Source: a virus
Virus genome (UHGV): UHGV-0202386
Length of the DNA: 15,272 nucleotides
Strand: one strand, 5' to 3'
In this document: piece by piece, positions 6,063 to 15,000 of the stretch
Layout: the number at the start of each line of letters is the position of its first letter
Numbering within the stretch: position 1 is the stretch's first letter
Notes under the pieces: generated by a model
Database searches by the model: none
Told to the model about the DNA's origin: nothing
Seen by the model: only the letters and a program-made list of their open reading frames with translations
Made by a program: the position numbers and the translations under genes

Positions 6063-6293
6063 CTGTTCACCACTGTTCACCCTGTTATAAATATCTTTTA
6101 TATCAGTACATTATAGGGTGAACAGTTATTTGTGAACTGTTCACCAAACTATTCACTGTTCACCTTTTTGATTATTTATTGAGCTTTAAGGGTGAACAGT
6201 GGTGAACAGTTGGTGAATAGTTTTTGTGAAACTGTTCACCCCTTAACGTTATGAATAAAAAGGGAAAATCTCAAAAGGTGAACAGGTGAAGGG
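6063..6293. repeat. Origin of replication: about 11 copies of the 9-mer CTGTTCACC (P4 type-I iteron TGTTCACC) in both orientations
   Basis: Plus-orientation copies at 6063, 6073, 6137, 6156, 6232; reverse-orientation GGTGAACAG at 6117, 6191, 6201, 6277, with variants at 6212 and 6285. AT-rich spacers. Lies immediately downstream of the primase. Confidence 0.8.
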
Positions 6294-6336: not shown

Positions 6337-6582
6337 GTGACAACGCAGCACGCAAAAAAACCACAATCTCACGCCCTTGATTTGACAGAACACTGGCTGA
6401 GGGTGGCGATAAAAATCATCGACCGCAACGCGGGAGAAGGGTACGCAAAAGCACATCCCGAACTGGTAAGCGCATTCATGACCACGGCAGCGGCAAACTT
6501 TGCCACACTGACAGAACGGGAGATTGCCGAAGCGGAACAGGTGACAACCATCAACGTTAAAACCGGAGAGCAGACAGCATGA
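6337..6582 (+). CDS. Hypothetical protein (81 aa), GTG start
   Basis: GAGG at 6325-6328, 8 nt before GTG 6337. Stop overlaps the ssb start (ATGA). Unknown family. Confidence 0.5.
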   Translation: MTTQHAKKPQSHALDLTEHWLRVAIKIIDRNAGEGYAKAHPELVSAFMTTAAANFATLTEREIAEAEQVTTINVKTGEQTA

Positions 6583-7004
6583 CAGCACAGATAGCGGCTT
6601 ACGGGCGGCTGGTGGCTGACCCGCAGTTAAAGACCACCAGCAAAGGGACACAAATGGCGATGGCGAGTATGGCGGTTCCCCTGCCGTGCAGCCAGGCAGA
6701 TGACGGAACGGCGACGATGTGGTTATCTGTCCTGGCGTTTGGCAGACAGGCCGACGCACTGGCAAAACACCACAAAGGCGAACTGGTGAGCGTGGCGGGT
6801 AACATGCAGGTGAGCCAGTGGACAGGCCAGAACGGGGAAACGCGGCAGGGCTGGCAGGTTATTGCAGACAGCGTAATCAGTGCGCGAACGGCGCGACCGG
6901 GCGGCAAAAAAGGTCAACAGGGCCAGGCCACTGACGCACTGAACAGGGCAAAACAACAGACAAGCCAGCACGATGACCCGTACGGGGATAACATACCGTT
7001 TTAA
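6579..7004 (+). CDS. ssb: Single-stranded DNA-binding protein (short SSB with conserved C-terminal ..D-N-IPF tip)
   Basis: OB-fold pattern (W..V.AFG..A..L.K...KG..V.V.G......W....G..R) and C-terminus DDPYGDNIPF resembling the SSB acidic tip DDDIPF. GGAGAG RBS. Confidence 0.8.
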   Translation: MTAQIAAYGRLVADPQLKTTSKGTQMAMASMAVPLPCSQADDGTATMWLSVLAFGRQADALAKHHKGELVSVAGNMQVSQWTGQNGETRQGWQVIADSVISARTARPGGKKGQQGQATDALNRAKQQTSQHDDPYGDNIPF

Positions 7005-7040: not shown

Positions 7041-7571
7041 ATGACAACGCTGACCATTAACCGGAAGCCGAAAGGCATTTACGGCACGCCGCAGAAAACG
7101 ACGCAGGCGGCGCAAGAGCAGGATAAAACCACATCGGTGCATAAAGTGATACCCGGCAATCAGAACGCACAGCAGAAGCCCACAGGGGCGACACCGTGGC
7201 AGCATATGACCAAAAGGCAGCGCAAAAACCGCCGACGCGTTAACCGCCTCACTGAGATGTGGCCTGACTTATTCAGCCATAAAGCACCGAAGCCGCTTAA
7301 GGTGGGGATATTCGACGACCTGATGCAGGATATCGCCGTCAGGGGGCTGGCATTCGGGTCGGGGGTATTACGTGCGACGCTGGCATCCTATGCGCAGTCT
7401 CCGCGCTATTACCGCGCCCTGATAGCTGGTGGCGCACGTTACGACCTGAAGGGCCAGCCATGTGGGGAAGTGACACCACAGGAACAGCAGGAGGCAGAAA
7501 CACGGCTGATGGTGCTGAATGAGAAGCACAAGCGCCAGCGCCGGGCAGCAAAGGGGGATACATGCCAGTGA
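7041..7571 (+). CDS. ProQ/FinO-domain RNA-binding protein (FinO-like RNA chaperone)
   Basis: PKPLKVGIFDDLMQDIAVRG...LRATLASYAQSPRYYRALIAGGARYDLKGQPCGEVTPQEQQEA aligns by eye to the ProQ/FinO core (PLKIGIFQDL...[35 protein letters not shown]). Lys/Gln-rich N-terminal extension. RBS AGGGGAAGG. Confidence 0.8.
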   Translation: MTTLTINRKPKGIYGTPQKTTQAAQEQDKTTSVHKVIPGNQNAQQKPTGATPWQHMTKRQRKNRRRVNRLTEMWPDLFSHKAPKPLKVGIFDDLMQDIAVRGLAFGSGVLRATLASYAQSPRYYRALIAGGARYDLKGQPCGEVTPQEQQEAETRLMVLNEKHKRQRRAAKGDTCQ

Positions 7572-11959: not shown

Positions 11960-12078
11960 GGCCGTCAGAGGGGGTGGGGGTGGTTTTCAGGACGAAACCG
12001 TCCCTGCCGGACACCGACCGCCTCCTCAAATTTTTGTGCACGGGAATTTTTTTGAAAATAATTGGGCGAAAAAAGAAC
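11791..12078 (+). other. Candidate cos/packaging-recognition region between HNH and terS, containing a G-rich tract
   Basis: 288-bp gap without a convincing gene. GGGGGTGGGGGTGG at 11970-11983 followed by a CAGGACG-AAAC-CGTCCCTG hairpin. Location argument: in HK97-like phages cos lies between the HNH gene and terS. Confidence 0.3.
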
Positions 12079-12435: not shown

Positions 12436-14080
12436 GTACGCAGAAGGCGTAAAAAACGGCAAAATTACGGCCTGTAAACGACTGAAACAGGCCGTTAAAC
12501 GGTATTTTTCTGACCTTGAAAACCCCCTTTACACGTTCGATCCGGAGGTCGTGGAGCGGTTTATTGCCTTTTCCAGGGTGTGTCCGCACGTAAAAGGCGC
12601 AATGCGCGGTAGCCCCATTGAGCTGGAGCCGTGGCAGCAGTTCGCCTTTGCGTGCATCCTGGGCTTTAAGGTTAAGGCCACCGGACGGCGCAAATACACC
12701 AGCGCATTCATTGAAGTGCCGCGAAAAAATGCCAAATCCACGGTCGCCGCTATCCTGGCTAACTGGTTTCTGGTTATGGAAAACGGGCAGCAGGATATTT
12801 ACACCGCCGCTGTGAGTCGTGATCAGGCGCGGATCGTGTTTGATGATGCGCGTCAGATGTGCCTTTTATCCCGACCGTTACGAAAGCGGGTAAATATTCA
12901 GGCACACAAGGTGATACACCCGAAAACCAACAGCCTGTTAAAGCCACTGGCAGCAAAAGCGGCAACCATTGAAGGTACAAACCCGAGTCTTGCCATTGTG
13001 GATGAATATCACCTGCACCCTGACAACGGGGTTTATTCCGCGCTTGAACTGGGAATGGGGGCGCGTCCGGAGGGGCTGTTATTTGCCATCACCACATCGG
13101 GGAGCAACGTTGTTTCAGCCTGTAAACAACACTATGACTATTGCTGCCAGATACTGGATGGTGAAGAGGTGAACGAATCCATGTTCGTGCTGATTTACGA
13201 GCTGGATGATGAAAGCGAGGTTGACGATCCGGCGATGTGGATAAAGGCGAATCCCAATATCGATGTTTCCGTCGATCGTGAAAAACTGGCCTCAACCATC
13301 CAGAAAGCGCGGGGTATTCCGTCGCAGTGGGTGGAAATGCTCACCAAGCGATTCAATATCTGGTGTCAGGGGGCTACGCCGTGGATGGGTAACGGTGCAT
13401 GGGCGGAGTGCGCCGGAACGTTCGCGGAGGCGGATTTATACGGTCAGGAGTGCTACGCGGGGCTGGACTTATCATCAACCAGCGATATTTCCAGCGTGTG
13501 CTATGCCTTTCCGGTCGGTAAAAAGATTATGCTGGTTTCCCGTCACTATCTGCCGGAATTTCAGCTACAGAACCCCGCCAATAAAAACCGCGCCATCTAT
13601 CGCCAGTGGGTAAAGGCGGGCTGGATACGCACAACACCGGGTGACTGCATTGATTATGACCGTATCCGTGATGACATCATGGCGGATGCAGAGAATTTCA
13701 ATATCAGGCTGGTGGGCTTCGATACATGGAACGCCACGCACCTGAGGACGCAGCTACAGGGGGCAGGATTTGAGGTGGAGCCGTTCCCGCAAACATACCT
13801 TCGTTTCAGTCCGGCGGCGAAATCGTTCGAAGTTTTTGTTAACCGGAAGGTGATTGTGCATCGTGGCGATCCGGTGCTGGCCTGGTCAATGAGTAATGTT
13901 GTGATGCAGAGTGACGCGAACGCCAATATCAAGCCGAACAAGAAAAAATCATCCAACAAGATAGACCCGAGCGTTGCGGCTCTGATGGCGTTTGGCACAT
14001 TCCAGGCAGAACATGAGGAATTTGCATTTGATATAAGCGACAGCCACAAAGAGCGGCTTGCGGCGTTTGATGGGGTATGA
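12419..14080 (+). CDS. terL: Terminase large subunit (Terminase_1-like ATPase/nuclease); apparent TTG start overlapping terS by 17 nt
   Basis: 553 aa. Size, position after terS and a conserved-looking N-terminal region (PWQQFAFACILGFKV..., DIYTAAVSRDQARIVFDDAR). No in-frame ATG until codon 62; GAGGA at 12408-12412 precedes TTG 12419. Confidence 0.85.
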   Translation: MTAWHEYAEGVKNGKITACKRLKQAVKRYFSDLENPLYTFDPEVVERFIAFSRVCPHVKGAMRGSPIELEPWQQFAFACILGFKVKATGRRKYTSAFIEVPRKNAKSTVAAILANWFLVMENGQQDIYTAAVSRDQARIVFDDARQMCLLSRPLRKRVNIQAHKVIHPKTNSLLKPLAAKAATIEGTNPSLAIVDEYHLHPDNGVYSALELGMGARPEGLLFAITTSGSNVVSACKQHYDYCCQILDGEEVNESMFVLIYELDDESEVDDPAMWIKANPNIDVSVDREKLASTIQKARGIPSQWVEMLTKRFNIWCQGATPWMGNGAWAECAGTFAEADLYGQECYAGLDLSSTSDISSVCYAFPVGKKIMLVSRHYLPEFQLQNPANKNRAIYRQWVKAGWIRTTPGDCIDYDRIRDDIMADAENFNIRLVGFDTWNATHLRTQLQGAGFEVEPFPQTYLRFSPAAKSFEVFVNRKVIVHRGDPVLAWSMSNVVMQSDANANIKPNKKKSSNKIDPSVAALMAFGTFQAEHEEFAFDISDSHKERLAAFDGV

Positions 14081-14370
14081 CGAGAATGAGCGAAACCGAA
14101 CTACTAAAAATAATCCGTCGCGTTACCGGAATCAGCCAGGAAGCAGGCAAACAGGAGGCCACGCAGCCGGACAGCGTGATAGCCGAAAATTACGCGCGTG
14201 TGGTGGCTGAGGTGATGCGCCGTGACGGTATCGAGCTTAACGGCGTGGATATACGCAATATACGCACCAGAGTTCTGGAGTTGTTGTCATATCGTCGCCG
14301 CGTGGAGATGTACCAGGAGAAAGAAAAAATTACTTACCACTGGAAGAAGCCGGAGCGGTTACGACGTTAA
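14077..14370 (+). CDS. Hypothetical protein (97 aa) translationally coupled to terL
   Basis: ATG 14077 overlaps the terL stop (ATGA). Alternative ATG at 14086. Unknown family. Confidence 0.5.
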   Translation: MTRMSETELLKIIRRVTGISQEAGKQEATQPDSVIAENYARVVAEVMRRDGIELNGVDIRNIRTRVLELLSYRRRVEMYQEKEKITYHWKKPERLRR

Positions 14371-14376
14371 CTTGTG

Positions 14377-14426
14377 GTGACATACCGTGACGGAGAGTGA
14401 CAACCAGTGACACACAGTGACAAAAA
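14377..14426 (+). repeat. Five GTGAC(A) motifs at exactly 10-bp spacing (one face of the helix)
   Basis: GTGAC starts at 14377, 14387, 14397, 14407, 14417 (GTGACATACC / GTGACGGAGA / GTGACAACCA / GTGACACACA / GTGACAAAAA). Begins 7 bp after the last stop codon. Confidence 0.7.
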
Positions 14427-14445
14427 GACGGTATTTAAATAGAGT

Positions 14446-14472
14446 GGGTGTTTAATACCCCCCGTTTTTTTT
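14446..14472 (+). terminator. Weak candidate terminator of the late operon (short stem then T8)
   Basis: GGGTG..TACCC stem (about 5 bp), then CCCG and TTTTTTTT at 14465-14472. A larger GGTATT/AATACC stem (14430-14435 / 14454-14459) encloses it. Stem is weak and separated from the T-run. Confidence 0.35.
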
Positions 14473-14483
14473 CGTGTGGTGCA

Positions 14484-14498
14484 TGGTCAAAATGACCA
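14484..14498. promoter_or_regulatory. Perfect 6-3-6 palindrome TGGTCA-AAA-TGACCA (operator-like)
   Basis: Read directly; typical geometry for a dimeric HTH-protein binding site. Confidence 0.45.
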
Positions 14499-14624
14499 CG
14501 GAGAAGATACGCACCGAAGCAGAACAATTACCGTAGGTTAAAGCGACAGTATTCACACCAGCAACCTGATTATCAATTTTCAGCCGTTCGGTGGCATCAC
14601 TGGCCCCATTTTCCTGATGGGGTT

Positions 14625-14676
14625 GCGGGTTATTTGGGGGGGATTTGCGGGTTATTTTGAATGTCTCGCGGGTTAC
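14625..14676 (+). repeat. Three direct copies of GCGGGTTA at 22-bp spacing
   Basis: Copies at 14625-14632, 14647-14654, 14669-14676, preceded by a CCCCAT/ATGGGG hairpin (14604-14622). Confidence 0.6.
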
Positions 14677-14752
14677 GCTTTGGCTAATATTCAAACGCAT
14701 CATTTTTTAACCCATTGATATTAAATAATAAAAAACACTTAGCAAGCGAAGA

Positions 14753-14777
14753 TAACCCGCTAACCCGCATAACCCGC
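14753..14777 (-). repeat. Three tandem copies of TAACCCGC (reverse complement of GCGGGTTA) at 8-9 bp spacing
   Basis: 14753-14760, 14761-14768, 14770-14777. Forms an inverted arrangement with the 14625-14676 array around a 76-bp AT-rich centre (14677-14752). Confidence 0.6.
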
Positions 14778-14785
14778 ACTGTTTT

Positions 14786-14799
14786 GTATATATATATAC
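14786..14799. repeat. 14-bp alternating palindrome GTATATATATATAC
   Basis: Read directly; immediately follows the TAACCCGC repeats. Confidence 0.6.
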
Positions 14800-15000
14800 G
14801 AAAAATTGCATTCAGGAGGTGGGATCGAAATCCCTACAACCCATTGCTTATGGGACTGCCCGCCCCGTCAAATTTTTACACCCGCGAAAAATACTTCAAG
14901 CTGGTGGGCATGATGCCGATATGGGGATCCCCATGTCGACATTAACGCCCCTCATGAATTGGCGTGCTTCCCCCTGGAAAGATGACCCGCCTGTATATTT

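Follow-up and report, generated by a model that had tools for sequence, protein, structure and literature searches.

What protein reads five GTGAC motifs spaced exactly 10 bp apart at the right end of a phage satellite? The motifs lie in the viral genome UHGV-0202386, a stretch of 15,272 nucleotides (hereafter the window, meaning the whole of the DNA analysed) which is a capsid-forming satellite of the capsid-forming phage-inducible chromosomal island (cf-PICI) type inserted in comM. An original prediction had described the array and offered a terminase or partition-like recognition array or a helper-protein target as its role; as it was made from the letters and a list of open reading frames (ORFs) only, a match to the origin repeats of lambdoid phage initiators was beyond its reach. 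We find that repeats with the same core and phasing occur within the genes of a lambdoid replication initiator family (phrog_3729/phrog_1408), and we put at about even the chance that an initiator of this family, belonging to a helper or co-resident phage, may bind the satellite array as a set of orphan iterons.

A perfectly phased array behind the last late gene

The GTGAC motifs start on the + strand at 14377, 14387, 14397, 14407 and 14417, the first unit lying 6 bp beyond the TAA stop codon (14368-14370) of p97, the last gene of the late operon, as had been predicted. In order the units read GGTGACATAC CGTGACGGAG AGTGACAACC AGTGACACAC AGTGACAAAA, and Tandem Repeats Finder reports a period-10 array of 4.8 copies at 14377-14424. 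Since the spacers (ATACC, GGAGA, AACCA, ACACA and AAAAA) are unrelated to each other, the array is one of phased motifs rather than the product of a simple tandem duplication. At the base composition of the window 3.7e-11 occurrences of five exactly phased copies are expected per window, and the longest phased GTGAC run in 2000 Markov-1 simulated windows was 2, which bears out the earlier judgement that a chance origin is unlikely. GTGAC occurs 33 times on both strands of the window compared to 25 ± 5 expected from shuffled sequence, and no second cluster was seen elsewhere in the 15,272 nucleotides. The array is followed by an A-run and AT-rich tail and then by a terminator-like hairpin (Table 1), placing it within a transcribed 3′ untranslated stretch. 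The least stable 25-mer of the array region, at 14432-14456, ranks at the 98.5th percentile of the window.

The same repeats occur within a family of lambdoid initiator genes

A context-blind scan for four GTGAC motifs at 10-bp spacing, covering species-representative genomes and IMG/VR, identified at least 120 viral loci. These comprise trivial tandem repeats, the satellites themselves and a dominant class of lambdoid initiator genes. In 53 of the 120 viral matches listed, the array lay inside or beside a gene encoding a homolog of the initiator N-terminal domain, always oriented alike, and in 16 of these loci the protein identity was as low as 29-45 %. In Escherichia albertii the array is contained in an initiator gene of the lambdoid O type, with a lambda P-like gene after it, and the same initiator is encoded by phages Evi (LR597642) and vB_EcoS-640R1 (ON470612). 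In the gene of these two phages GTCAC is present on the sense strand in two clusters, at 2635/2645/2655/2666 (cluster 1) and at 2895/2905/2915/2926/2936 (cluster 2; coordinates of the loci L474/L475). Directly 3′ of cluster 2 is an A/T-rich tract (GACAGATAAAGATACAG / GACAGATAAAGATACAGATAAAG), and the cluster lies just ahead of a low-complexity linker, corresponding to the position of ori within lambda gene O. The repeat layout is unchanged in Aeromonas phage pAEv1818 (OL964755) at 53 % protein identity. The 465 phage units give the consensus yGkC-GTGAC-A, with a core conserved at 100 % and A at +1 in 54 %, the units being spaced by 10 bp in 282 cases and by 11 bp in 100, in clusters of 4-5.

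The members of phrog_3729/phrog_1408 are variously annotated as 'replication initiation protein', 'replisome organizer' and 'primosomal protein I'; some have a DnaT-like C-terminal part, and no solved structure was found for the initiator. From the position of the GTGAC repeats, their conservation across divergent proteins and by analogy, we infer that they are the iterons of this initiator. Of 5426 complete Escherichia coli genomes 1821 (34 %) contain the sequence coding for its N-terminal part, which makes encounters between the satellites and such phages likely.

Phased repeats are also held by the unrelated initiator gene of HK106 (L527, NC_019768), suggesting that short direct repeats internal to the gene are a general design of lambdoid origins. 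At 32680-32778 its Sf6 gp43-like replication gene contains TTGTCCAACGG in two clusters of three with exact 11-bp spacing, probably the origin iterons of HK106. The HK106 repeat superficially resembles the TTGTTC repeats of the window and is not identical to them.

Other loci carry GTGAC repeats in different settings. A number of high-GC prophage contigs (L129, L140, L161, L163, L219, L223, L241, L244) contain near-perfect tandem copies of GTGACAAACG/GTGACATTCA, from 4 to at least 7, approximately 50 bp upstream of the start of the portal gene, a context which differs from that of the initiator genes; one contig ends inside the repeat. A Scandinavium hiltneri contig (L033, NZ_JALIGE010000061; 13,974 bp, coverage 1167x) has a non-coding region at 1200-1900 adjoining a Toprim primase gene, in which the repeat families CAGTCAC, GCCACT/AGTGGC and GTGACC/GGTCAC surround a long AT-rich stretch and five GTGACC are followed by A9 and GTATATAAAT. 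The succession of repeats and A-rich DNA parallels that at the satellite array, and the region has the appearance of a replication origin, whether of a small high-copy replicon or of an induced satellite.

A proposed orphan iteron set for a phage initiator

The satellite array and the phage repeats have in common the GTGAC core, a purine at +1 (with A preferred in the phages), phasing by one helical turn (10-11 bp in the phages) and a copy number of four to five; the short tract of low stability behind the array may correspond to the A/T-rich tract next to a phage cluster. The phage repeats differ in being within their own initiator gene, in two clusters and with mixed 10/11 spacing, whereas the satellite has one intergenic cluster at a strict 10 bp and no initiator gene. 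By tblastn, no homolog of the initiator was identified in the window or in any satellite locus. As the satellite lacks the gene and the array is intergenic we class it as an orphan or mimic array and not as a phage origin. A helper-protein target is the best fit among the roles originally suggested.

According to the mechanism that we propose, the five sites would be targets of the N-terminal DNA-binding domain of an initiator supplied by another phage. In that phage the origin would lie inside the initiator gene, where the second of two clusters of four to five GTGAC at 10-11 bp steps is followed by the A/T-rich tract. Upon replication of the phage in a satellite-carrying cell, the initiator would load cooperatively along one face of the helix onto the satellite sites. 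Two outcomes are possible, which we do not rank. As a decoy, the induced and amplified satellite would titrate the initiator and damp theta replication of the phage; as an auxiliary origin, the A-run and AT-rich tract would be opened and the satellite co-replicated by the phage initiator and helicase loader. The wider proposal, that satellites carry an exchangeable mimic of origin repeats which may sequester a phage initiator (DNA-decoy interference or defence) or be replicated by it, is put forward tentatively from these sequence comparisons and we hold it to be somewhat less than probable.

Several observations weigh against binding by phrog_3729/1408 initiators. Extended homology between the array and the phage clusters is absent, the best match being 17 nt (E=0.15); the array was accordingly rejected as a captured fragment of an initiator gene. 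The satellite units follow the phages only in part in their preference for a C ahead of the core, the motif is reversed in its orientation to the A-rich tract relative to phage cluster 2, and the AT-rich tract itself is short at approximately 25-35 bp. HK106, which with HK446 is a verified helper of the prototype cf-PICI, uses a different type of initiator, and a helper link through HK106 was dropped for this reason. The GTGACC repeats of the L033 replicon occur without a detectable homolog of the phrog_3729/1408 initiator. The blind scan with its at least 120 loci was itself conditioned on GTGAC, and the searchable literature is silent on iterons of this initiator family.

The array is an optional module under selection

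Several types of E. coli satellite carry the array at their right end as a separable and optional module. It accompanies p97 in an element beside yejO that has capsid and decoration genes (L001) and in one of the RepA-helicase type beside smrA (L002), while other array-bearing satellites lie next to phoQ (L003, L006) and clpS (L004), giving with comM five integration sites. In L003, L004 and L006, 88-401 bp of other sequence separates p97 from the array and the flanks differ on both sides, but these displaced (type-B) arrays still keep the units and the AAAA(A)GACGG tail and likewise precede a hairpin and T-run (TGACGTGGCCAACGTCATTTTTT). E. coli E700025 holds a copy of window 14000-14800 with 99.8 % identity. 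We recovered 80 IMG/VR loci with p97, and among the 53 that could be judged downstream the array was present in 15 and absent in 38. The array was found in 281 of the 5426 complete E. coli genomes (~5 %).

All 311 copies in these genomes are chromosomal, and sequenced phages and plasmids searched for direct similarity to the array gave no match. Partition genes (ParR or a ParM/ParA type NTPase) were not identified by Pfam in 20 of the 91 listed window ORFs, the main genes included. A partition centromere (parC-like and bound by ParR) is accordingly not supported, and neither is the partition-like array of the original prediction.

Scanning viral and metagenome contigs with a family-specific pattern, we obtained 93 array instances representing 19 distinct arrays; the IMG/VR sets are redundant and were partly selected by the GTGAC pattern itself. 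Across the 19 distinct arrays 2 of 25 core columns are polymorphic compared to 14 of 25 spacer columns (Fisher p=6e-4), and one of the two polymorphic core columns is a deletion junction. The position +1 after the core is always a purine in the family arrays, being A in four and G in one of the window units. Arrays have 3, 4 or 5 units, whole 10-bp units of differing identity having been lost, and the sole other change in length affects the A-run 3′ of the last unit, with AAAA(A)GACGG otherwise kept in all variants. Slippage between repeats would by itself produce whole-unit changes, so that this unit-wise variation is the weaker argument for a constraint on spacing, which follows rather from five units with unrelated spacers being kept at exactly 10 bp. 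The array is under selection, its cores conserved and its spacers free, and the description of a helically phased multi-site target for one protein is upheld.

The matS site of MatP is a 13-bp palindrome, GTGAC(A/G)N(T/C)GTCAC (PMC3116907), and all units of the array read GTGAC followed by a purine as a matS half-site does. No unit forms the palindrome, however, and the array consists of direct half-sites 10 bp apart with no inverted partner. Similarly, gains and losses of whole units are the expected product of slippage in a functionless minisatellite, but conserved cores with diverging spacers are unlike neutral repeats and the module persists in satellites of different kinds and between different flanks. 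A host-factor site of this kind or a functionless minisatellite is accordingly far-fetched.

Array-positive satellites retain their own primases, and no array is present in vB_KppS-Ant, a cf-PICI sequenced from particles, or in the O157:H7 cf-PICI, which belongs to the EcCIEDL933 type mobilised in experiments and does encode a p97 homolog. The retained primases and a functional O157:H7 cf-PICI without the array fit an accessory role, as do the optional, exchangeable distribution and the variable location at the right end.

The array does not track a satellite protein

We tested for association with the array in 63 non-identical elements (35 with and 28 without it) at three clustering levels. 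In this small sample no satellite protein tracked the array, including the small terminase (TerS), Rpp, integrase, AlpA, primase and ProQ-like proteins, and the only ORFs to score were spurious, being located in alternative non-coding modules or in other reading frames of the p97 gene. These data bear on the alternative that another DNA-binding protein of satellite or host, such as p97 or a filament of the AlpA/excisionase type, binds the array and that its identity to the phage core is coincidental. The commonest arrangement has the array directly after the p97 gene, and its presence correlates with the p97 DNA allele (31 of 35 compared to 11 of 28), although this may be linkage. The satellite also encodes an AlpA-family protein, and excisionases of the broad AlpA-like class bind phased direct repeats, as does pSAM2 Xis on its GTCACGCAG repeats. 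Weighing against this, the majority of p97 loci have no array, the array can be displaced from p97 among different flanks, and p97 itself has no recognisable DNA-binding family and no sequence match among solved structures. Neither AlpA, integrase nor the other satellite proteins co-vary with the array, clpS-site elements occur both with and without it, and its distance to the TTGTTC arm sites near the attachment site (att) varies over 360-565 bp with variable inserts. An excisionase/AlpA array was rejected for this want of co-variation and of a fixed geometry to att and arm sites, and we consider it unlikely that any such protein is the ligand.

GTGAC and the att-proximal TTGTTC arrays were the only phased arrays in the right-end regions. 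The two are unrelated, in agreement with the original prediction: in relatives the TTGTTC repeats are found beside att, accompanied by GGTGTAGT repeats, in the manner of integrase arm sites.

Satellites without the array have a mosaic of short modules 3′ of p97 (L248-L327, for example L253, L303 and L326; also L528 4441-4900). Each starts with approximately GGCG(C)GGTAACTnnnTGATATT, a motif which overlaps the p97 stop codon and resembles a cassette-like junction repeat, and each contains a small palindrome (CCTCAATTTGAGG, TCCCCCATTGGGGGA, GCGCAAAATTGCGC). The palindromes CCTCAATTTGAGG and TCCCCCATTGGGGGA were considered as lambda-type iterons and rejected, a scan of viral contigs for clustered copies giving one locus only.

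An RNA role is improbable

The array could alternatively act as RNA, either as a small RNA derived from the 3′ untranslated region or as a sponge with five single-stranded GUGAC motifs. In both types of arrangement it is located between a stop codon and a terminator-like hairpin with T-run, and no structure is predicted for the stretch (z=-0.38), which folds no better than shuffled sequences on either strand. An AU-rich stretch followed by a terminator, as found after the array, is the usual anatomy of RNAs bound by Hfq or ProQ, and a ProQ/FinO-domain protein is encoded by the satellite. A motif array in RNA would however have no need of exact 10-nt spacing over five units with unrelated spacers, the stretch has no Rfam match, and the presence of the ProQ-like gene is not associated with that of the array. 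Motif and phase also recur inside the phage initiator genes, where a role as DNA is obvious. We regard action as RNA as improbable.

The array shows no fixed relation to packaging sites

The terminase recognition array of the original prediction corresponds to a packaging signal, namely a cosB-like or cosQ-side accessory site for the small terminase of satellite or helper in combination with an HK97-type cos-like site. Such a site (GGGATCGAAATCCC...GGGACTGCCCGCC) is present downstream of the array at 14821-14864, the gap being only ~80 bp in L001/L002, and a lambda-type cos is also found in the right-end region of some relatives (L304). The distance between array and cos is nevertheless variable, increasing to ~430 bp in the window, which has an insertion between the two, and the phoQ-type array-bearing cf-PICIs (L003/L006) have no cos-like site after the array. 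No cluster of TerS or Rpp was associated with the array among the 63 elements, and cf-PICIs with 88-100 % identical TerS and large terminase (TerL) were found both with and without it. The array lies upstream of the cut, whereas the single 15-bp site bound by HK97 TerS is at +15 to +29 (PMC11331095), and GTGAC repeats are absent from the canonical hnh-terS cos-like copy of the window (11990-12022). The array is missing from both vB_KppS-Ant and the functional O157:H7 type, and the Rpp-TerS target of EcCICFT073 (cos1/cosB) has a different sequence. A packaging role is very improbable on this evidence, and the terminase reading was not sustained. The distribution and geometry of the array, together with what has been published on HK97 TerS, led us to reject a site for cf-PICI TerS, and the Rpp/TerS cosB of EcCICFT073 was rejected in view of its other cosB and a lambda-type cosN located upstream of rppA.

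The physical right end of HK97 reads ...GGGGGGGGATCAAATC...AAATGACCGCCGCCAAA and the satellite site at 14821-14864 of the window, shared by L001 and L002, reads GGGGGGATCGAAATCCC...TGGGACCGCCCGCC; the HK97 cos junction also occurs in HK106. Both cos-like sites of the window (14821-14864 and 11990-12022) consist of a small hairpin, GGAC..GCC.GCC and then TCAAATTTTT, and are homologous to the HK97/HK106 junction. The right-end copy also occurs in satellites lacking a terminase large subunit. The vB_KppS-Ant record ends in the hnh-terS spacer but is missing approximately 75 bp, making it weak evidence for the position of cos. A Chi site (GCTGGTGG) is present at 14900-14907, ~35 bp past the right-end cos-like site, and occupies the same relative place in L001, L002, L004 and L007. 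Some p97-bearing satellites have a lambda-type cos in the right-end region (GGGTCCTTTCCGG...ACGGGGCGGCAGACGCGCAG..., ~330 bp after p97 in L304), and some array-positive satellites encode an Rpp-like protein (QQEIADQFGVDRTTVRAWTKRG..., L410 7458-7955). The lambda-type cos and Rpp-like gene suggest that the right-end region collects packaging signals of different helper types.

Comparison with known repeat systems

Lambda ori resembles the array in that its repeats, which bind the initiator, are followed by an A-rich, easily melted tract (ACAAAAGACACTATTACAAAAG), and differs in having four O-binding 18-bp palindromic iterons ~20-24 bp apart inside gene O. When cloned together with oop, ori-lambda iterons block initiation of lambda-type phages in trans, the 'inhibition phenotype' (PMC3349717). 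This is a precedent for a decoy in so far as a matching replication module is silenced in trans, although oop RNA is needed also, and no natural satellite-borne copy of such trans-acting iterons has been described.

The control iterons of plasmids (P1 incA, F incC) are initiator-binding repeats outside the origin which act by titration or handcuffing. They serve the initiator and copy number of their own replicon, whereas the array would act on the initiator of another element. The P4-type iterons (TGTTCACC) are short phased repeats, like those of the array, and serve satellite replication; they differ in their motif, in having their own primase-helicase encoded alongside and in forming the core origin of the element. 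No TGTTCACC octamers are present in the array, which is unlinked to primase type. The cosB sites (lambda R1-R3, EcCICFT073 cos1 and the HK97 TerS site) are, as the array may be, protein-binding sites in cis within non-coding DNA near a satellite end that serve to hijack a helper, and differ from the array in sequence, in their fixed position relative to the cut and in their dependence on TerS/Rpp.

Other features of the satellite

The window has genes for a P4-type integrase, AlpA, a D5-type primase-helicase, single-stranded DNA-binding protein (SSB) and a ProQ/FinO-domain protein, together with structural and packaging genes for an HK97-fold capsid, prohead protease, portal, connector and HNH endonuclease and both a P27-family small terminase and a large terminase. 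The gene content and order are those of the capsid-forming PICIs of Alqurainy et al. (bioRxiv 10.1101/2022.09.08.507074). Coding sequence of comM/yifB was read directly at the right end of the window. The genes for the ProQ/FinO-domain protein (7041-7571) and SSB (6579-7004) lie between the origin and the capsid genes, the P4-type repeats at ~6064-6284 presumably being the satellite's own origin (Table 1). An AF2 model of p97 gives a low-confidence three-helix bundle (pLDDT 65), and the protein was rejected as a candidate Rpp-like protein.

Table 1 Coordinates of repeat arrays and neighbouring features in the window
Feature	Position	Strand or orientation	Remarks
GTGAC array, five GTGAC(R) units at exact 10-bp steps	14377..14426	+	Putative set of orphan iterons read by a lambdoid replication initiator
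A-run and AT-rich tail (AAAAAGACGGTATTTAAATAGAG)	14422..14445	+	Constant companion of the array; possible short DNA-unwinding tract
Hairpin GGGTGTTTAATACCC, then CCC and a T8 run	14446..14473	+	Terminator-like end of the late operon
p97, 97-aa gene (phrog_1561, function unassigned)	14077..14370	+	Neighbour of the array and its usual landmark
P4-type origin repeats TGTTCACC	6064, 6074, 6138, 6157, 6233	direct	Just 3′ of the D5-type primase-helicase gene
P4-type origin repeats GGTGAACA	6117, 6191, 6201, 6277	inverted	
Second origin-like module	14625-14777		Inverted GCGGGTTA at 14625, 14647, 14668; direct TAACCCGC at 14753, 14761, 14770

A palindrome, ATGGTCAAAATGACCAC, is found at 14483-14499, and variants such as ATGGTCATAATGACCAC occur in many related right ends, often just past the terminator. 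The second origin-like module has three inverted and three direct TAACCCGC repeats around ~78 bp of AT-rich DNA and lies inside an insertion (~14466-14818) that is absent from L001 and L002. This module of ~200 bp is conserved in 52 IMG/VR stretches; elsewhere it is positioned mid-element just after a primase-like ORF of ~712-730 aa (L502, L506, L510) or just after terL. The TAACCCGC 7-mer matches the core of the HK97 TerS site CTAACCCGATTTTTT. With this module and cos sites of two packaging types, the right end may be a general store of cis-sites by which several phages are exploited.

Implications for satellite-phage conflict

Satellites are known to hijack the capsids, tails, terminases and regulators of their helpers by means of proteins and cos/pac sites. 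Iterons themselves are well known, but an orphan iteron set in a satellite matching the initiator of another element is undescribed in the searchable literature. From the phage repeats, two GTGAC clusters within the initiator gene are the likely origin of a widespread and uncharacterised lambdoid replication module. Should the satellite array be a target of its initiator, a non-coding array acting on a phage replication initiator would constitute a new, purely cis-acting layer of satellite-phage conflict, and iteron-specific inhibition or co-replication would be expected with Evi-type lambdoid phages only. With the array in ~5 % and the initiator N-terminal region in 34 % of complete E. coli genomes, this interaction could be common.

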